Of a stretch of 64,000 nucleotides of DNA, positions 4,006-24,715 are shown piece by piece; the first letter of the stretch is position 1; each line of letters begins with the position of its first letter. Source of the stretch: Cladosporium halotolerans (taxonomy: Eukaryota); the NCBI RefSeq assembly GCF_011745625.1, contig NW_027191498.1:62001-126000 (forward strand), given 5' to 3'. The translations under genes and the position numbers were made by a program. The notes below the pieces were generated by a model. The model was not told the DNA's origin. It saw nothing but the letters and a program-made list of their open reading frames with translations, and made no database searches.

Positions 4006-6249
4006 GCTGTTGCGCCGGGTTCCTTGTGGTTTGTGTGACCGTTGGTCTGTTGTGTGTTTACTCGGTGATGGCGGCAGGTGTCGCACGGGAAGGGTGGGCT
4101 AGATATGGCGCGCCACCGTTGCCTTCAAGACGACCGATTCCTTTCTGCTGTCGTCATGCTGGCTTGGAGCGGGGTGGCGCAGCGGGGCAGTCCAGCTGCG
4201 CCCAGAAGAAGCGAGATTGGCAAAGTTGCTTTGTCGCATCGCCGTCCCGCGGATTCGGGAGGATGAAAACGATTTACCGCGATGGCTATGCAGCTCTGGT
4301 GACTTGAAGAGACATACGAACCGGAGTCGCATGGACTGCTGAGCATTCCACCAGATTGGTAGGATCGCTAACCGTGCGAGTTGCACAAGCTTGATCTTGG
4401 CTGTGTTGACTGTTATGGCTGGGGTGGTTTTTGAGTTACGGTAGTGTCATGGGTATGTCAGATGCGGCGTCTTCAGGCTCTTGGGTAGAAGAGGGCTACA
4501 GGAGTAAATGATTGGTCTGCATCCGTCGAGAGAGTTCGATTAACCTGAGATGGGCATGCCAGAAACCTGTAGCCCATAAAACGGCCACGTGCTGGTGTGC
4601 TTCTTGTGCAGGAAGCACCCAGGCGCTTGACATCAGTGCTACCTTATGGAAATGATGATTTCCATGCCATGTTGACTCACGGACGATCAAAGTCATTTGC
4701 AACTACATTATCCTAATGCCTTTCCAGATTTACCGCGGTCATGAAAGCACCTGCACCAGTCCATCCGTGCGACTTGTTTGGGCGTTGCTCAAAGAGCTTG
4801 GGAAGATCAATGTCATGTCCCGATATATCTGCAGGATCGTACAATGTCCTCTAGGTTCTTTCATCAAATCCATCATATAGCGGTGGTAAAGTCTTTGACA
4901 CTGAACAAGCCGATCAACCGTGTTGATGTCGTGGTCGACGTGAGCATTTGGAGATCCTAGGGTTAGGGTTGGGGTCATAAGTCGATAAACGTTTGTCAAG
5001 GCCGTGGCTTAGAGTCGCTTCGCCATGGTGAATGCGGCCGCACTGGAAGCTACTCTGTGATCGAATTTTCCTTCGTTAGCTCCTTACGATCCCTTCACTG
5101 TATGATATCGAGGTGCTGGTGAATGCTCGAGTCCATCTGCCCTCGACGGTCGGCGCGGACCGGACCCAGGCCCTTGGCTCACGTGCGGCGACCGGTTACG
5201 TTGCAGTGGGCTGTCGCAGTGGGTCCGCGTTGCGATTGAGCTCCGACGCCCGTACTTCGCGTTACGCTGACGGACGTCGCGCCTCACCTTCTGTATATCA
5301 CTACCCATCTCCTATCAACATCCATACCGGACGGGCGCCGGGAGGCTTTGGCTGAGCTGTTGCTGCGAGGACACGGCCGGCGAAGCAACGCAACCCAGGC
5401 GGGAGTGCGATGGAGGATCCCCAGACAGCAAGCGCCATTCGAGTCCAGCCCTGCAAGAATACTCCTGCGTAGCTGCTTGACTTTGCAATAGCATTGCGCC
5501 TACCTTCTAGCCGAATTCCTGGTGAGTTCTGCTGATGTCCTCATCACGCCTTCACGCGATGGCGTACCGCAGTGGAGGACATCACCGCCACAATGCCGCG
5601 CAAAAAGTACCGTGCGCTGGACCTACAGCAACTAACTTCGCCCCGAAGATCCAGATCGCTATCCGATCGCGCGTGCGATCATCTTGACAGAAGCGACTCC
5701 CTTCTCTCAGAGAATCGCAATTCAGCGCTCGTCAACACTTCATCAACCAATTCGGAGTCGCTCAAATTACCGAATACCTGTATCCTGGGACCGTCTTCAC
5801 GCCAGGCTCTTGAGCTATTACGTTTTGGATCTGCAAGCAAAGCCATCGAAACACCTGCCGCAAGTTCAAGTCCTTCGCTTGTGAAGCCGTTGGAACCTCG
5901 CATATTCCTGGACAGCGAATTTCCGCCCTTAAGTCAGTCTTTGTCACACCCTCCGCACAGCGGTCACCCAAGGCGCTGCGTCACGTCGCCGGAGTTGGGA
6001 CACCAACCGCACCCATTACTTTCACCGTCTGTCTCCTCCTGGACCTTTGACACCTGTTCTGAAGGAACGGTTCCCCTTGATTTGATCTCAAACCCAGACT
6101 GCGGGCTGGACTTGCATCTTGCCCCAAACTCTGCGCAAACTTCCATCGAGAGCACGGAATTACTCCCGGTGTATAGTCGGGATACACTTCCGCGCTCAGA
6201 ATTGTGCGCTGTGTCAGCAGACTCGGCAAAGCGTTCGTTTCGGAATGAT

Positions 6250-8524
6250 ATGGCCTCTGCCTTTCCGCAGATGTCTGGAGATGCGCGGCGGCATTATCCG
6301 TCGGGGTCAAACCGATATGAGAACCGCCCGCCTGTGAACCGCCAAACATCTTGCAAGAATGGCCCACTTTGTAGAAAATTCCAAGAAGGTCGGCTCATGT
6401 GCTCCTGTATAGGCCCATGCGGGACAAGAAGCTCATCCGTCGCAGGTACCTGCCCATTCAACCATGATTTCTCTTCAACTTTACCACCGGCAAATGGTCT
6501 CGGCGTGTTCGTTGCCCGTCCCACGTATTCCCTGTTCAAAGCTAAGACTCGCTTGTTAGCCCGAAGAAATCCTTCAATGTCGAGTCGCCGTCTTTCACGC
6601 CGAAGACACTTGCAGCGCAGCCCGCCGCACCGCAAAGTAAGAACATGGGCATTTCGCCCAAGGCTGCTGCTGCTGCCACATTCACCCCTCGGGGCTCAGG
6701 TACGCAGAAGCCCGGTCGTAAAGAACGTCGGGTAGCGCCGCAAGGCTCACAAGTCGAAGGCACGGTGACACCTGCATCCGCATCGCACTCAAAGGCTCCG
6801 TCGAACGAATTCGTTCCTCAGCAAAACTTTCAGAATACCTTTCAGGAGTTCGTTCCACAGAACTTTGTCTCGGCCCAACAGGTAGGTTTGAGATCATCAG
6901 GAAAGAACCGGTTTATGAAGGCTGGGCTGACAGCCATCAGGTCGACCCACAACCACAGCTTGGTACACCTATCAGTGCCTTCGCAGATCCCTTCTTGGCT
7001 ACTCAGGCGCTTCAAAGCCTGGACGGCAGCCAGGCGACCATCAATCCATATGCCGAAACTACACCCGCCGTTGGCGCGCAAGCGTTCTTCCAGGATACTT
7101 CGAGCTTCAGGCACCCTCTAAACTATCACTTGTATGCTTCACTGGGCCCTAGGCGAGACCAGATGATGCTTTACCAGCGAACAGCCGCCGACTTCTTCAT
7201 ACCGGACGACCTTCGCGAAGATCTCCAGCGAAAAGCGGAAGCGACGCTTCAGACGTTCCCTAATAGCACGTTGCCACAGAACGTGGACAATCACTTCCAT
7301 TCGCTGGTTGCCTTGGACTCTGTAAACTCGAGAACTTCCGCTACATTTGGATATCCAAGCTGGATCTACAAGGCCACATCGAGCATCGATGGCAACACAT
7401 ACGCACTGCGAAGGATTGAAGGATTCCGATTGACGAGCGACCAAGCCATCAATACCAAAACGACCTGGAAAAAGGTCAACAACGGCAACGTGGTCCGAGT
7501 GCATGACGCATTCACCACTCAAGCCTTCGGAGACCGGTCACTGGTGGTTGTACTTGACTATCACCCAATGGCTCAGACTGTGACAGACAAGTTCTTCTCG
7601 CGCGCCGCCATCGCTAGCAGAAACAACCAGATCATCCCCGAGCAAGAAATTTGGGGTTACATTGTCCAGCTCTCAAACGCTCTGAAAGCCATTCACTCTA
7701 ATGGTCTGGCAGCAAGGACTTTGGTACCATCGAAGGTCTTGGTCACCTCGAAGAATCGTCTACGCTTAAGCGGCTGTTCCATTCTGGACATTGTCCAATT
7801 CGAGCAATCATCGTCGATCATAGAGCAGCAGCAAACGGACCTCCGAGACCTGGGACGCCTCATGATTGACATTGCAACTCGCAATTCTGCCGCCCACAAC
7901 AACCCTGCAAAAGCGCTGGATCTGGTCAGTCGAAGCTATACTGACAGGTTGCGAGCCTGTCTACAATGGCTGCTCGCTCCGCCTCAAGTGGACCCGCATA
8001 CACCCACTGAGGAAGCCATTGCCGCAAGTGCCGAATACAACGTCAACACATTGATCGGCAACATATCAGATCACGTCATGAATACTTTCGACAGCAGCCT
8101 GTCGCACGACGACGACTTGACTTCGAACTTCATGACGGAGCTCGAAAACGGCCGCCTAGTCCGCCTGCTGACAAAGCTCAACGCCATCCTCGAGCGACCT
8201 GAATCTTCCGCTCCTAACTCCTCAAACAACCCCTCTCACATCAACCAGCCCTCGAATACTTGGAGCGAGACAGGCGAACGCTACTACCTGAAACTCTTCC
8301 GCGACTACGTCTTCCACCAAGTCGACCACGACGGCCGCCCGGTCCTCGACCTGGGACATATGATTACATGCCTGAACAAACTTGACGCTGGCATCGACGA
8401 GCGCATTCAGCTGGTCAGCCGCGAGGAGCAGAATATCTTTATCGTCAGCTACCGCGAACTTAAGAGAGGCGTGGAGGCTGCGTGGGGAGAGCTCAGTCGA
8501 GGCAACAGGAGCGGGAGGAGATGA
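6250..8524 (+). CDS. PAN3: PAN2-PAN3 deadenylase subunit PAN3 (CCCH finger, PAM2-like motifs, pseudokinase, C-terminal knob)
   Basis: MASAFPQ..CKNGPLCRKFQEG|TCPFNHD (CCCH), SFNVESPSFTP, FFIPDDLREDLQRK, ELENGRLVRLLTKLN, WSETGERYYLKLFRDYVFHQVD, CLNKLDAG. About four short 5' introns. Confidence 0.95.
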
Positions 8525-16823: not shown

Positions 16824-18042
16824 ATGGAGCGTCTCAAGCAAGCCGCAGGGCATACAAAAGATGTCGCAACCTTACCGCCACGATTGCTGGACATGTACAG
16901 CGAGTTCATCACCAAGAACGCCGGCGCAGTGGGCCAGGTCGAAGGCGCGCTGCGCTCGTTGACCTACATTATCCCGGGTAAGCGATGTGGATCGCTTTTT
17001 TCTCGCGTCGCATTTGACTGATGATATTGCAGGCCGCTTCAGGGAATCCGAAATCGCATCGGAGTCGCTCAACTCCGGCGTGCAGCTTCTCGGACTCTAC
17101 CATGACGACCTCTTATCGCGCTCGCTGGCGCACTCGCTGCGACACAAGCCGCAGACGCTGCACAACAGATATACGCGATTTTACTGCCAGAAAAGCAGCA
17201 CATACAAGCGGACAGCGCTCACACTTTCTTGTGTCCAATATACCGAACTTCTTCTGGAAATGATGGCAAAGCGGAGGGGAGAGAAGGCGAGGTGGAGAGT
17301 GGTGGTACTTTTGGAGGCCGTGAAGGCGCTGTGCAGGCTCATATTGATGCGCTTGACAAACTCGAGACCGTTATTGAATCCGCCTTTGCCGGAGAGGGAA
17401 GTGCAGGAAGAGAAGCCCACCACAGACGAGGATGATACGATACATTCGCCGCCCTCGGAGGAATCAGAGGTTTCACACGCTGGATCCGAGAAATGGACAA
17501 TGCCTCGCACGTCTTTAACTCTGCCGCCACTTCCGAGCTCTGAGGATATTTCGTCTTACCTTCTGTCTAAGGTCCTTACAGCCGACGATGTCAAACCACC
17601 CAAGGCATTGCTCCAACCCACGGCGGGATTTGGCGAAATAGCAGAAGTCATCTATATCTTGCGACCACTTATTTACACATCCGCTATGGCATACTGGAGC
17701 CAACGACAGGATGGCAAGGGCAAAGCAGACTGGCGGCCGTGGCTTATCGGTCTGTCGATCGAATACGGTGCACGACAACTCGCAAAGCGCGATCTCGAGA
17801 CCAGAAGACCCGGCGGAGCCAGAGGCTTAACCCAGCTCGAACGCGACGAATTCAAGAAGCGCAGCTGGGGCATGGCCTGGTGGGGAATGCGCGGCGCCTT
17901 CTACGAGAACGTCACCCGTGGTATGATTCTTGGGTTTGCGGGCAAGCTCAAGGGCAAGCCGCTGTTGGACATGGTGGGCACATTTGTGGAGGACTACGAC
18001 TTTCTCTGGGAGCAGTATTACTTTCCCACCGCCACTTTGTGA
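16824..18042 (+). CDS. PEX16: Peroxisomal membrane biogenesis protein Pex16, 2 exons
   Basis: YSEFITKNAGAVGQVEGALRSLTYIIPG|RFRESEIASES, LHNRYTRFY, WRVVVLLEAVKALCRL, WRPWLIG, WWGMRGAFYENVT. Intron 16978-17032. Confidence 0.95.
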
Positions 18043-19569: not shown

Positions 19570-20330
19570 CATGAGTCTCTCTATCGACCACGCGAAGCGC
19601 AAAAGCAACAGCCCTAGGCTCTCAAGGTGAGCGTCCAGAGCACCGACCTTATCGATCTCATGATTGTCTTGCTTCTTTGTCCAGGCAAGCATATCTTCCA
19701 ACGTCGCCATTGCCCTCCCAAAGCTCTCTGAGCAGATCGCAACAGCGGTCGCCAATTCCATCAAGTCCGAAGAGGTCAACAATTAAGCTATCAACGCCCG
19801 AGAAATTGGCCGCGAAGTGGGCAAAAGCGTTACTGCCGTTTTCAAGGACGTCCAGGCTTCTCTTCTGAAAATACCCGAGACTGCCTTGTCTTAGCTATTC
19901 AAGCCGCAACTTGATACTAGCGCCCTTCGCGCGCAGATCATTGGTATGAATGACCTATCGCCTTGGCGGGAAGCATGTTAAACATCTGACAGCCAATGGT
20001 GCCCAAATTCTCTCTCGGTACCAAGGAAATAAGGACTGTTGCCAGTGGGTTGAAGTCCTCACTTTCTATCGCAATGGGTACACTGCAGCGATGGTAGTGG
20101 CCAAGAGGGCTCCCGGTCTGGAAGGCTATAAGATCAATATCCCTATTGCGCCAACTCAGACGGAGAAGTACTGTTGGCTCTCAACGAGAAGACCAAAGCC
20201 TGGTTGGCTCGAGCTGAGGAGCTTGTCAAGAACGAAGGCTTTCATGACTTGGGAATGTTGGATATTGCGAGACTTGATGAATTCGATGTTTAATCAGAAA
20301 ATGCATGATCTTTATACGGATCTGTTTTGA
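19570..20330 (+). pseudogene. Probable pseudogene of an unknown spliced protein gene
   Basis: GT-AG introns 19627-19684 and 19944-19992 join a protein-like helical frame (ASISSNVAIALPKLSEQIATAVANSIK..AREIGREVGKSVTAVFKDVQASLL). It is broken by TAG 19615, TAA 19784 and TAG 19892. Confidence 0.45.
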
Positions 20331-20777
20331 CTTTGAACGCTCAAGCTGTGGAGGCTATTCAGAATTTCTGTTGCGGTGTGTGGCTAGCCGCAACAAAGAT
20401 CAATGAACTGTGTTTGTGGATAAGATGGCCACTCAGTTGACGCATGTCTCCCACAATGTAGGTGAGAAACATAACATGCGCCAGTATCCAAAGGAAAGAG
20501 CGAGGCTGAGTGCTGAGTTGCGTGTAATTGCGTTATAGCGATCGATACAGTTGCGGAGCTGCGTATGCTTTGCGCTCCGCTATATCCTACGCCTTTAGAA
20601 ACTGCATCACCGTTCACTCATTCGAGGGTTCTTGGTGAATATGGGAACAGTCCTCTCGAGTTGGGCCGTAGAAATAGAAACCGCGAGGATCTGCATGACT
20701 TGTGAAACGTTAACCAATACGTTAACAAAAGCAAAAGATGATTCGCTTGTTCAGCAGGGTAAAACAGCAACATCAGC

Positions 20778-21060
20778 AAAAAGTGCAAAAGAACCTAGCC
20801 CCTCTCCCTTCGAGGGGCCGAGAAGAAAACCGCGAACGATTTTACTTACACGAGGACATGAGTATCGGCGTCATAGGTCTTAGTCTTCGAAGCAGCCCCT
20901 CCCATGGCTGTAGTGTGCCGGGGATTCGAACCCCTTGCTCTAACGGACGGACCCGGTGATCAGGCGGGACCCCCGTGAGTACCTGGAGCGCAACTAGGTC
21001 GCGGTTCCCTCTGTAAACCGCCCTTCCACAGCGGACTACCTCTGCCTCACATGACGTCAA
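20778..21060 (-). ncRNA. Candidate structured Pol III non-coding RNA (~280 nt), class unassigned
   Basis: Minus strand shows B-box GGTTCGAATCCC (20921-20932), nested long-range helices with G-U pairs, a 3' hairpin followed by T4/T5 runs, and an AT-rich box ~20 nt upstream. There is no tRNA cloverleaf. Confidence 0.6.
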
Positions 21061-21608
21061 ACGCAAATTCCATCAATTTATTCGTTAATCGCGGACTTGC
21101 GCCGCTCGTGGCTGGGGACGGGAGCGGGAGGGTTCACGTGATCCTGGCGGACGGTCGTGGCGTCGTGATCACGTGCCGAGGGCGCGGTGACGTCGTAGTG
21201 CTGGTGCGCATCTCTTGTAGTACCAGGGTCGCCTGGCGGGTGGAGTAGTGGCATCGTAGGGTCGATGATGACAAAGGGTTCAACTTGGCCGGCGCGTGGA
21301 ATGGCCTCAATCGAGGCAATGATCGCGAACGCATGTAAGGTTATCGGCGACTGGCATGGTCTTGATGTGATGAAGGACCTAGAACCTGGAACGACCGATC
21401 ACGCATGGAGACTCGCAGAAGTCTGGGTGGCATGCAAGCGACAATGGTCGAGGATGAGTAGGTAATGAAAAGAGACGAGCAACGAGGAGGCAAAGAGCCT
21501 TCAACCAGCCACTTGGGTATCATACGTACAGTATCACCAATTTCAAATCACCTGAACGCCTCGCTGTGCCAAATAGGCAAAAGACCAACCATCCCTGCCC
21601 AGAATATC

Positions 21609-22223
21609 CTACTTCTTGTCCCTACCTGGCGACAAGGGCCTGTTGAAGCCACCAACGCGGTTCATATACTGTCTGTACTCCGCCTTCTTGACCTTACTCA
21701 CAGCATAGTTCCTGTCGTTGCCGGGCACTTTAGTATCCTTCGTGGTACGGAAATCCTTGAAACCCATCACGCGCTGCATCTCTGCTTCCGAATCCTCGTC
21801 CTCTAGATTACCGCCCATGTGTACATCGCGCGAGCTTGATGATTGTGTTTTCCCTGACCGAGGATCTGAGCCATTTGCCCGAGAGTCTTGTTGCCCACGA
21901 GGGCCGCCGCGAGCCGGGGCGCGAGATGGCTCGGGTGTGCTTGAGTCCTGGCGGCTGCGGGCGTTGCGGGGCCCTGATCGGTTGTAGTCATCGTAGCGGT
22001 CGGAAGGCCCATTACGGCCTCCTCTCGGAGGGGAACGGGATCGTCGCCTATCGTTGCGGCGTTCGCGATGCTGTGGAGAGCGAGATCGTTCGCGTTCTGA
22101 AAGACTGTTAGCTTTGGGCTTGATTACACCACTGCGGGGAAATAGCATACCATGTTTGGGTCTCAAATTACGCGGCTCATCGCGGCGACCGCCACGGTCA
22201 TCTCTTCGAGAATTGCGATCCAT
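21609..22223 (-). CDS. SNRNP27: U4/U6.U5 tri-snRNP 27-kDa protein (DUF1777)
   Basis: RS-rich N-terminus, then MQRVMGFKDFRTTKDTKVPGNDRNYAVSKVKKAEYRQYMNRVGGFNRPLSP. Confidence 0.92.
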   Translation of the reverse strand: MDRNSRRDDRGGRRDEPRNLRPKHGMLFPRSGVIKPKANSLSERERSRSPQHRERRNDRRRSRSPPRGGRNGPSDRYDDYNRSGPRNARSRQDSSTPEPSRAPARGGPRGQQDSRANGSDPRSGKTQSSSSRDVHMGGNLEDEDSEAEMQRVMGFKDFRTTKDTKVPGNDRNYAVSKVKKAEYRQYMNRVGGFNRPLSPGRDKK

Positions 22224-22501: not shown

Positions 22502-24715
22502 ATGGCAACAATCCCACCAACTCCCTCGAGCTTAGGGTCTTGGGAAGAAGCGTTCAACCACCCCTTACCGGTGGTCCGGAAACTCGAGAGCCAGCTTCGA
22601 ACACAGATTTCAGACAATCAGAATAAACTTCGATCACTTGTGGGAGCGAGTTATCGGGATCTTTTGGGAACAGCAGAGAGAATCATCGAGATGGACGGGC
22701 AGATGTCGCTTGTCGAAGGAAACTTGTCGGACATTGGTCGGAGGTGCGATTACAGGATTGTTGAAAGGGGTAGAGGGAATCTGGATGGATTGAGGAAGGC
22801 TGGCAGGAAAGAGGAGGAGAGTAAGCTTGAGGTGACAGCTCAGGTAAAGATGTTGACTGGAGCTCTCGATGCCGTCGCGAGGCTTGTCAGGAAGAGAGGG
22901 AATGCGCTCGGAGCGGCGAAGGTGTTGGTGTTGGCCAGACTGTTGCATAAAAGCGTTTCCGAAAGCGATAATGCGCCTACGGTTATTGCTGAGTTGAGGA
23001 AGAAGCTGGCCAGGACGAGGAAGCGGCTGCTCTCCTACATTGAACGATCGTTGGCACATGCGACTGGAGATCGCACCACGCTTAGCAACACACTGTGTGC
23101 ATATGCTATGATCTCCAGCTCTACGCCGAAGGATGCACTTCGACATTTCTTGCAAGTCAGATACGAGCAGCTCGAGTCAAAGGCCGAAACGACAAGCGAA
23201 GAAAACGTCTTGACAATGCTGGATCTTTACGGCAAAACTCTTGTGGATGCTCGCGACCTATTCCCTCGCAGGCTTGCAGATGCTCTCGCTCAGCTGTCGA
23301 AGACGGCGTTATTGAAGGATGATCAAGTCACATCGGTTCAAGAGCTGAACCTCGATATCTACCAGCGCTGGATCCCTGAAGACATTCGAACCTTCACTCC
23401 ATGGGTTCGCAGTGACCAGCTTACGATTTCTGATCTAAACGACGGCCTGAAATTCTGGGCCAAGCAAGCACAATCCAGTTTCGTGCAAGCTCTGGAAAGC
23501 TATCTTGAGTCACAAGCAGATGCAGAGGTTGTCCTCTCAACCCGACGAAACGTCCTCTCGCGCTTCCTCTCCGTCAGCAGCAAGCTCAAAAACGATGACT
23601 TCACACAATCAATCACAAACCTGCGCAACGCCTTCCTCAACCGCCTCGAAACCCTCGCCACCCAGTCCGCCGACATCTCCTCCTTCGCCCTCCAATCCCT
23701 CACCGACCCACCTTCCTCCCTCCCCACAACCCAACCCTCCCCCTGGACCCTCGCAACCCAAACCCTCGACCTCTCCGCCGGCGCCCTCCCCTTCCGCACC
23801 GCCATCCTCGACCACCGCCGCGGCCGCACCGGCCCCATCAAAACCGAGCACACCGCCCTCGACCGCTGGACCACCCAGCTCAACTCCCACTGGGCCTTCG
23901 TGGCCTCCATGCGCTCTGCAAAATGGGACGACGACCTCGCCTTCGACCTCGACGACCTGCCCTACGACGGCCCCGACTCCGAGTCCCTCCAGGAAGCCCT
24001 CAGCCGCGCCGACCCCGCCCGCCTCGAGCAAACGCTCCGCGCCGCAGCCTCCGCCGCCTTCGCATCCGCGTACAGGAAAGTCAGCGACGCCGCCGCCGCC
24101 CAGCCCGAGACCCCAGCCTTCTTCCTCCGCCTCCTGCGCGAACTCGACGCCCGCCGCGCCGCGCTCGCCGACCGCCTCGCCTCCTCCTCCTCCTCCTCCT
24201 CCCCCAACGAAGCCCTCATCACAACCCTCCACACCTCCCTCGCCACGCAAACCCTCTCCGCCCCCTGCGCCGCCTACGCCGCCGCCGCGCAGCGCCAATC
24301 GCACACCGCGACGAGCCTCTGGGACGGCGCCGCGCCGCCCCTGCCCTGCCAGCCGTCGCCCGCGGCGTGGAAGCTGCTCGCGGAGCTGCAGGGCGGCATG
24401 GCGGCGTGCGGGGAGGATCTGTGGAGCGCGAGAGCGGTGGCGGTGCTGAAGGGGCTTGTGCGCGAGGAGCTGAGGGAGGCGGTGGGGAGGTTCCCTGAGG
24501 GGGGAGATGGGGAGGTGCGAGCGCAGCGGGTTTTTGACGTGTTGTATTTTGGGGCTGCGTTTGGGGCGGAGACGGCGACGACGGGATGGGAGGAGAGGGT
24601 GGGGGAGTTGGTTGAGGGGGCGGGGGTTGATGCTGAGGGGAGGGCGAGGATGGAGAGGGGGGCTGGGGAGTATTGGAAGAGGACGGGGGTGTTGTTTGGG
24701 CTTTTGGGTGGGTAG
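22502..24715 (+). CDS. COG1: Vps51/Vps67-domain protein, probable COG complex subunit 1
   Basis: WEEAFNHPLPVVRKLESQLR..KLRSLVGASYRDLLGTAERI at the N-terminus and YWKRTGVLFGLL at the C-terminus; single 737-aa ORF. Confidence 0.8.
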   Translation: MATIPPTPSSLGSWEEAFNHPLPVVRKLESQLRTQISDNQNKLRSLVGASYRDLLGTAERIIEMDGQMSLVEGNLSDIGRRCDYRIVERGRGNLDGLRKAGRKEEESKLEVTAQVKMLTGALDAVARLVRKRGNALGAAKVLVLARLLHKSVSESDNAPTVIAELRKKLARTRKRLLSYIERSLAHATGDRTTLSNTLCAYAMISSSTPKDALRHFLQVRYEQLESKAETTSEENVLTMLDLYGKTLVDARDLFPRRLADALAQLSKTALLKDDQVTSVQELNLDIYQRWIPEDIRTFTPWVRSDQLTISDLNDGLKFWAKQAQSSFVQALESYLESQADAEVVLSTRRNVLSRFLSVSSKLKNDDFTQSITNLRNAFLNRLETLATQSADISSFALQSLTDPPSSLPTTQPSPWTLATQTLDLSAGALPFRTAILDHRRGRTGPIKTEHTALDRWTTQLNSHWAFVASMRSAKWDDDLAFDLDDLPYDGPDSESLQEALSRADPARLEQTLRAAASAAFASAYRKVSDAAAAQPETPAFFLRLLRELDARRAALADRLASSSSSSSPNEALITTLHTSLATQTLSAPCAAYAAAAQRQSHTATSLWDGAAPPLPCQPSPAAWKLLAELQGGMAACGEDLWSARAVAVLKGLVREELREAVGRFPEGGDGEVRAQRVFDVLYFGAAFGAETATTGWEERVGELVEGAGVDAEGRARMERGAGEYWKRTGVLFGLLGG

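Follow-up and report, generated by a model that had tools for sequence, protein, structure and literature searches.

In a 64-kb stretch of Cladosporium halotolerans DNA (contig NW_027191498.1; the whole stretch is called the window), the minus strand probably carries a lineage-restricted small RNA gene that belongs to no catalogued family. Our preferred reading, to which we give a probability of about one half, is that the stretch is a genuine gene in single copy, encoding a small non-coding RNA (ncRNA) of ~270–290 nucleotides (nt) and running from ~21060 to ~20785, ~0.55 kb behind the SNRNP27 gene, with RNA polymerase III (Pol III) as its most likely polymerase. The position, the length, the end motifs and the 3′ hairpins of this unit are kept in relatives, the hairpins with compensatory changes, and the unit changes more slowly than the adjacent spacer. 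Beyond this, we infer a transcription unit of its own, with putative ends, polymerase and protein partners, and possibly a function. The locus had been singled out by an original prediction of a Pol III RNA with an internal B box, nested helices and a terminal hairpin followed by a U-run, and all strings quoted in that prediction were read in the sequence where it had placed them.

Conservation and constraint of the unit

For comparison, 80 SNRNP27 loci of relatives (416 kb) were fetched. Those named here are labelled L003–L025. Five of the 80, all metagenome loci of Cladosporium-like fungi (L007, L009, L011, L012 and L025, with four distinct sequences, L025 being the same as L009 wherever compared) carry a common 5′ motif on the same strand, 547–607 nt after the SNRNP27 match. 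In the window this motif reads TTGACGTCAT and lies ~560 nt past SNRNP27; its form in the relatives is TTGACATCAT. The end motifs of the unit, TTGACRTCAT and GTTCTTTTGC, are 266 nt apart in the window and 249–262 nt apart in L007, L009, L011 and L025, whose units likewise close with a hairpin and then GGTTCTTTTGC. In L012, only the 5′ half is present and the 3′ motif is missing. The 5′ block of the window is identical at 16 of 21 positions to GGGAACTGCGGTTGACATCAT of L009, L011 and L012, with one more difference in L007 (counted by eye), and the form shared by the window and the relatives is GGAAYTGCGKTTGACRTCAT. Along the L009/L011 alignment, identity climbs from 82% to 98% at the 5′ block, and homology collapses ~8 nt past the T4 run.

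Between L009 and L011, differing columns number 7 of 296 in the unit, 42 of 425 in the upstream spacer and 2 of 168 in the coding end; the corresponding counts for L009 and L007 are 90 of 297, 192 of 471 and 15 of 168. We estimate that the unit evolves 4–6 times slower than the upstream spacer. Its best-kept parts are the 5′ block, the two-hairpin 3′ domain and the 11-mer GGUUCUUUUGC, and the middle evolves fast. Near-identical strain data were assembled contigs only. Over 20200–21600, X3, a DNA contig of organism C, has 33 substitutions and one indel relative to the window: none in 20200–20827, then single changes at 20828, 20848, 21003, 21004, 21078 and 21149, then 27 substitutions and the indel in 21179–21480. 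Four differences thus fall in the unit, as against 27 substitutions and one indel in the spacer at 21151–21480, a comparison that is weak on its own because the flank at 20200–20775 is also unchanged. The adjacent C to U changes at 21004 and 21003 convert two G-C pairs of the GCGGUU/AACCGC hairpin into G.U pairs, which is consistent with the minus strand only; no double (both-side) change was seen in this hairpin.

The 3′ domain was analysed with a covariance model (R1) built from L007, L009 and L011 only and run on both strands of the 64 kb with filters off. Its best match in the window is a full-model hit at 20776–20851 on the minus strand (19.9 bits, E 0.0023), where synteny predicts it, and covers hairpin B and the T run; the E-values are rough, because a near-equal second match exists at 5689–5744. 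Counted over four sequences in an alignment fitted to the model, 92% of cells in the domain are paired and 8 of the 23 pairs have changed on both sides. Shuffles average 2.6 such pairs, with none of 500 attaining 8, and slid-partner controls have 1–4, with 39–58% of cells paired. Both helices contribute: helix 1 (hairpin A) has 13 pairs, four of them changed on both sides, with 89.6% of cells paired, and helix 2 (hairpin B) has 10 pairs, also with four, and 95%. The G.U pairs of hairpin B are consistent with the minus strand only. We regard this covariation as good but not final evidence for the two hairpins. The 3′ hairpin followed by T4 and T5 runs had been predicted from the window; it is present, and hairpin and T run were found again in relatives with compensatory changes. 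A sister model (R3) run over 72 kb of other loci gave a best score of 10.5 bits, and on 16 further loci it returned nothing under E 0.56 and nothing at the syntenic place.

The unit appears to be non-coding. No open reading frame (ORF) of at least 45 amino acids (aa) occurs within the unit of L007, L009 or L011, and the 74-aa ORF of the window unit has no ATG and no Pfam match. We also considered the unit as a first coding exon, starting at a CCATGG at ~20905 (MGGAASK...) and ending in a GTAAGT donor. The unspliced ORF is only 19 codons long and no frame continues downstream; for this reason, and because the orthologous units have no ORF of at least 45 aa, this possibility was rejected. As to RNA, a marine metatranscriptome (X21) yielded a 152-nt contig wholly within the unit, at 20858–21009, which is a weak hint only since DNA can occur in such libraries; the B-box hairpin is unchanged in this contig and in X3. 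Another data set, X9, is probably a transcriptome of the same organism, as its contig depths differ tenfold. It covers 20493–20766 and the 3′ end of SNRNP27; no X9 contig lies on the unit, a missing cover that proves nothing.

The unit appears to be single-copy. Besides itself, no copy was found in the window, and none outside the syntenic place in the 80 loci; the 21-mer around the B box had 0 exact matches in metagenome contigs. For want of any such copy the reading as a SINE (short interspersed nuclear element), which the original prediction had offered as a SINE-like master gene, is disfavoured. Neither is the unit a transfer RNA (tRNA). The absence of an acceptor stem and a D-arm had been noted beforehand and agrees with ARAGORN, which at default settings found 0 tRNA genes in the window and, with a relaxed threshold, only a poor cloverleaf at 20910–20994 with 5 of 7 acceptor pairs and a 4-bp T stem. 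A tRNA split by introns of the messenger RNA type was considered too; ARAGORN recognized no tRNA in 4967 versions from which one or two GT..AG spans of 30–130 nt had been removed.

The original prediction had left the RNA unassigned, and covariance-model searches gave no known family. At the gathering score, Rfam gave no match in the window or in nine related loci. With E up to 10, the unit and its L009 ortholog gave noise only, with no signal recognition particle (SRP) RNA, RNase P, RNase MRP, spliceosomal small nuclear RNA (snRNA) or 7SK. For small nucleolar RNAs (snoRNAs) of the box C/D or H/ACA type, the only Rfam match inside the unit was an H/ACA-type one of 13 bits, far below the cut-off. 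By eye, the ends showed no RUGAUGA/CUGA pair and the 3′ end no ACA at a distance of 3 nt, either in the window or in L009, and no Sm-type site was seen. Resemblances to P4 of RNase P/MRP, to SRP helix 8 and to the GAUC of 7SK were considered and rejected, as they had no Rfam support. A literature search returned nothing on such an RNA in Dothideomycetes, which is no proof of its being unpublished. The features of the unit are collected in Table 1.

Table 1. Features of the unit and of its immediate upstream region, in window coordinates.
Feature	Position	Strand	Remark
Whole conserved unit (putative RNA of ~270–290 nt)	20776..21071	minus	From 5′ block to just beyond T runs; shared end motifs
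TATA-like AATAAATT	21075-21082	minus	~20 nt before end of conserved 5′ block
Conserved 5′ block GGAATTTGCGTTTGACGTCAT with palindrome TGACGTCA	21051..21071	minus	Putative RNA 5′ end or promoter element
Outer-helix strands GACGTCAT and ATGACGCC	21051-21058 and 20867-20874	minus	Read from sequence
10-bp helix strands GAGGTAGTCC and GGGCTGCTTC	21033-21042 and 20889-20898	minus	Read from sequence
GCTGTG and TACAGC	21027-21032 and 20907-20912	minus	Read from sequence
Hairpin GCGGUU-UACAGAGGG-AACCGC	21001..21021	minus	Present in centroid fold
Middle block CCGTCCGT, then ..GCAA.GG	20943..20950	minus	Common to L009 and L011, by eye; middle alignment uncertain
B-box hairpin GGGG-UUCGAAU-CCCC, GGGGTTCGAATCCCC	20920-20934 (B box 20922-20932)	minus	Exact B box
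3′ domain hairpin A, AAAAUCG-UUCG-CGGUUUU	20826..20843	minus	Corresponds to helix 1 of R1
3′ domain hairpin B, GGCCCCUC-GAAGGGA-GAGGGGCU (GGCCCCTC..GAGGGGCT)	20797..20819	minus	Helix 2 of R1; terminal hairpin of the original prediction
11-mer GGTTCTTTTGC with T4 run (20787-20790)	20785..20795	minus	Identical in window, L007, L009, L011 and L025
Second T run, T5	20778-20782	minus	No counterpart at this place in relatives

Polymerase signals, fold and points against a Pol III gene

The Pol III consensus for the B box is GGTTCGANNCC, and that for the A box is TRGCNNAGTGG, located 30–60 nt before the B box. The exact B-box 11-mer GGTTCGAATCC occurs once in the window, where 0.03 occurrences are expected by chance and 3 of 100 shuffles contain one; the perfect B box that had been reported in a T-arm-like hairpin is confirmed. 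Upstream, the window, L009 and L011 have a TATA or AT-rich stretch ~25 nt ahead of the 5′ block. In both relatives it reads TATATAA, at a position equivalent to that in the window; L007 and L012 lack it. Downstream, the T4 run is retained inside the 3′ 11-mer in the window and four orthologs, yet a further T4 lies inside hairpin A of the window. Taken with the B box, the T runs make Pol III plausible as the most likely polymerase.

A second set of Pol III-type elements was found at the same place behind SNRNP27 in another relative, L013. Positions 5120–5316 of this locus hold an A box (TGGCTCAGCGG, one mismatch) 53 nt before an exact B box (GGTTCGATTCC), followed by a 60-nt hairpin, a terminal hairpin and a T5 run. 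Its fold is better than chance (z = −3.67; 0 of 200 shuffles are as good), and it is neither a tRNA nor a member of an Rfam family. As an ortholog of the window unit it is only a candidate: its 5′ block aligns poorly with that of the window, and R3 has no match at its 3′ end.

In a Pol III gene of this kind, TFIIIC would bind the exact B box inside the unit, and TFIIIB would occupy the TATA-like or AT-rich sequence ~25 nt ahead of this block at the 5′ side of the unit. Transcription would end in the T runs behind hairpin B, and the hairpin with its 3′ oligo-U could bind La, giving a stable RNA that might serve as the core of a small ribonucleoprotein (RNP).

The nested helices that formed the core of the original prediction did not withstand comparison with shuffled sequences. 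When these 285 nt were dinucleotide-shuffled, 94 of 100 shuffles contained an uninterrupted stem of at least 10 bp, G-U pairs included (mean longest stem, 11.4). As such stems are at chance level, the full 10-bp helix with three G-U pairs carries no weight, and the nested three-helix core as a whole is at chance level. This P4-like helix is moreover nested and not a pseudoknot. The outer helix GACGUCAU/AUGACGCC, as read from the sequence, contains one A.C mismatch, and no counterpart of either helix was found by eye in the alignment of the relatives. Alternative pairings exist at the 3′ end: GAGGGGCU is present twice on the minus strand, at 20892–20899 and 20797–20804, and either copy can pair with GGCCCCUC at 20812–20819, giving the short terminal hairpin or a 90-nt hairpin favoured by the minimum free energy (MFE) fold. 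A similar long hairpin, closed by GAGGGGG/CCCUCGG, is found in L013.

A number of observations weigh against a conserved Pol III RNA gene. With regard to the polymerase, no A box within two mismatches of the consensus was found in the window unit, and the B box is degenerate in L007, L009, L011 and L012; its best version there is TGTTCGAGCAC, with two mismatches, in L009 and L011, and L007 has none within two. In L007, a T6 run stands inside the conserved 3′ domain, ahead of conserved hairpin B. Near-identical contigs also touch the proposed signals: the TATA-like box is AATAGATT in X3 (change at 21078), the X3 change at 20828 removes one A-U pair of hairpin A and breaks the inner T4 (20826–20829), and the T5 run is interrupted in X12 by a U to A change at 20779. 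As to structure, the MFE of the whole 285-nt fold is −102.8 kcal/mol where shuffles average −102.9 (z = 0.02), with 100 of 200 of them folding equally well, and the whole units of L009 (z −1.46) and L007 (z +0.82) fold no better than shuffles either. To these are added the small basis of the covariation count, the unchanged flank in X3, and the second R1 match at 5689–5744 on the minus strand (18.1 bits, E 0.0069). This second match is a 10-bp hairpin followed by UUCU, without a T run, antisense to an ORF at 5593–6735 that has no Pfam family; it is probably due to chance.

Also on this side of the balance, the unit is absent behind SNRNP27 in L003, L004, L008, L014, L016 and L021, and direct sequence searches do not reach from the window to the relatives. 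Vps51 and SNRNP27 coding DNA aligns with the relatives at ~69% identity, up to the SNRNP27 stop codon where the alignment ends. With the candidate as query and with a profile of the relatives, blastn and nhmmer gave no link beyond a block in the 3′ untranslated region (UTR) of SNRNP27, and a model of the 5′ domain (R2) fails to find the window. The case for orthology therefore consists of synteny, spacing, the short motifs and the match to R1, the model of the 3′ domain. Divergence in the 5′ and middle parts goes past safe alignment, and the inner hairpins of the original prediction are putative. The search for relatives which that prediction had proposed had a mixed outcome: no link by blastn or nhmmer, and a positive result by synteny, the R1 match and the 8 pairs changed on both sides. 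The same is true of the independent Pol III ncRNA it had put forward. The minus-strand non-coding unit, its rough borders, its conserved place and its constraint stand, whereas against the polymerase stand the missing A box, a B box that the four best orthologs have only in degenerate form, and the T6 of L007.

Alternative readings and neighbouring features

The main rival, itself unlikely, is a small or long ncRNA made from the same unit by RNA polymerase II (Pol II). Its promoter would comprise the upstream TATA-like box and the TGACGTCA palindrome, of the ATF/CREB type, and the B box of the window would be a coincidence or a remnant. On the promoter side, what is best kept is indeed the TTGACRTCAT block and not an A or B box, the four orthologs named above have not kept the B box, and Pol III should not pass the T6 that precedes hairpin B in L007. 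Two CACGTG sites, at ~21135 and ~21170, lie just upstream of the unit, and with the X9 contig at 20493–20766 directly downstream, the RNA might exceed the unit. For a Pol III gene speak the exact B box in both the window and L013, so seldom expected by chance, and the end of L009/L011 homology shortly after T4, which fits a 3′ end there. Pol II ncRNAs of familiar kinds are further disfavoured by the lack, by eye, of snoRNA boxes and Sm-type site and by the lack of an Rfam match.

A diverged or intron-split housekeeping RNA (SRP, RNase P/MRP or spliceosomal snRNA) is very unlikely. A size of ~280 nt and the layout would suit SRP or RNase P RNA, and GTAAGT at 20842–20847 followed by CTAG at 20795–20798 delimits an intron-like span of 53 nt, in which the change at 20848 in X3 and X12 falls just outside GTAAGT and leaves GT intact. 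However, this supposed intron holds the covarying hairpins A and B, and Rfam is silent on the unit and L009 even at E up to 10, as it is on nine related loci at the gathering score. The absence of the unit from six related loci would be surprising for an essential RNA, unless it had moved. The MRP RNA of Pezizomycotina is, moreover, described as much longer, with a P10 helix of more than 200 nt (PMC1796607).

It is also highly improbable that the unit acts as a DNA element, either as a TFIIIC-only site forming a boundary between convergent genes, like the ETC (extra TFIIIC) sites of yeast, or as a regulatory or termination zone for its neighbours. An exact B box without an A box, a place between the 3′ ends of SNRNP27 and a small plus-strand ORF, and a whole-unit fold no better than chance would all agree with it. 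On the other hand, the two 3′ hairpins indicate RNA by their compensatory changes and by G.U pairs that suit one strand only, the defining B box is not kept in four orthologs, and a constrained length of ~280 nt exceeds what a protein binding site needs. Least probable is a decayed tRNA gene or tRNA-derived SINE copy without function of its own, for which one can cite the T-arm-like hairpin, the poor relaxed-threshold cloverleaf and the A and B boxes of L013 at the same place, since ARAGORN finds nothing at default settings or in the intron-removed versions, no second copy was found in the window or, in the 80 loci, off the syntenic site, the unit changes more slowly than the spacer, and its conserved parts are the ends, which are not tRNA-like.

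The small RNA gene that we favour would lie between the 3′ ends of SNRNP27 (21609–22223, minus strand; Pfam PF08648, E 1.5e-25) and a small conserved plus-strand ORF. The closest named relatives of SNRNP27 are from Cladosporium species, at ~70% identity, in keeping with the Dothideomycetes assumed in the original prediction. Genes for a Vps51-type protein (22502–24715) and for Pex16 (17260–18042) are on the plus strand. The small ORF, of 83–93 aa (..SDAEALLSLYEESKR..), is convergent with SNRNP27 in six loci, for instance at 1931–2203 in L004 and 4957–5229 in L008 (minus in locus orientation). In the six loci that lack the unit, it starts 300–350 nt after SNRNP27, on the opposite strand; in L007, the homolog of the small ORF is 3.3 kb away. 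A B-box-like GGTTCGAGTCC behind SNRNP27 in L004 and L008 (GGTTCGAGGCC in L021) was considered as an ortholog and rejected, as it corresponds to G-L-E-P codons of the opposite-strand ORF. In the window, the homolog of the small ORF is split over two frames of the plus strand (20052–20121 and 20150–20245), so that an intron or a frameshift is needed. A plus-strand ORF at 21051–21248 was discarded as this homolog, which tblastn places at 20052–20245; a 126-aa ORF at 19950–20330 has no Pfam family. The 276-nt X9 contig at 20493–20766 begins ~12 nt past the last T run of the unit, and may be a transcript of its own or the 3′ UTR of the small ORF. On the minus strand of the same region, at 20438–20483, a weak SNORD34-like match (19.2 bits, E 1.3, far under the cut-off) includes 11 nt exact to the guide region of the model, within a hairpin with an 8–9-bp stem.

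The 3′ UTR of SNRNP27 contains a strongly conserved block at 21515–21567 on the minus strand, AGCGAGGCG ... CGTATGATACCC. All 13 aligned sequences, some of them from loci without the RNA unit, have it unchanged. An X9 RNA contig ends at 21499, 16 nt past this block. The block may be a signal for 3′-end formation or a self-regulating element of this splicing-factor gene. A 681-nt X9 contig has 29 extra letters past 21499 that are absent from the window, so that it is either chimeric or joined to sequence from far away.

Comparison with known systems

Beyond budding and fission yeast, the Pol III transcriptomes and small structured RNAs of fungi have been little mapped. A unit of ~280 nt that is syntenic and under constraint, has covarying hairpins and fits no Rfam family is a concrete candidate for a new RNA family in very common moulds. 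Were it a Pol III product, it would illustrate the speed at which such genes can exchange promoter elements (A box, B box, upstream block) with their ends retained; otherwise it would be an ordinary lineage-specific ncRNA.

Like tRNA genes, with their type 2 promoter (RF00005), the unit has an exact B box in a T-arm-like hairpin; in contrast to them, it has no cloverleaf, acceptor stem or A box and is three to four times longer. It resembles 7SK (RF00100, RF01052) in size, in an upstream TATA-like box, in conserved 5′ and 3′ parts around a variable middle, and in having oligo-U after a 3′ hairpin. The likeness to 7SK suggested by the original prediction is one of layout only, with no Rfam match, and 7SK and its partner HEXIM are known from animals but are not known from fungi. 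Yeast ETC sites resemble the unit in being isolated exact B boxes without an A box, located between genes; they differ from it in that the unit is constrained over ~280 nt, with covarying hairpins, and that most orthologs do not retain the B box itself.

The leader-type and orphan Pol III genes of yeast (RNA170, ZOD1, SNR52 and RPR1) are likewise single-copy small genes with tRNA-type promoter elements without a tRNA and an end in a T run. L013 is similar to them in having A and B boxes in its 5′ part followed by hairpins, like a leader before a mature RNA. The window unit has no sequence or Rfam relation to these genes, its B box lies ~130 nt into the unit without an A box, and four orthologs have no good B box. 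A bolder possibility, which we consider doubtful, is a family-restricted Pol III RNA of a new class, in which a tRNA-like promoter module would drive, and perhaps be cleaved from, downstream hairpins ending in oligo-U. The module would be the B-box hairpin in the window and the A and B boxes in L013. Such a layout is known from the leader-type yeast genes and from viral precursors in which small RNAs are linked to a tRNA. If the new class were real, its product could be a new fungal RNP scaffold or a small-RNA precursor, and this would suggest that Dothideomycetes have a Pol III transcriptome as yet unexplored.

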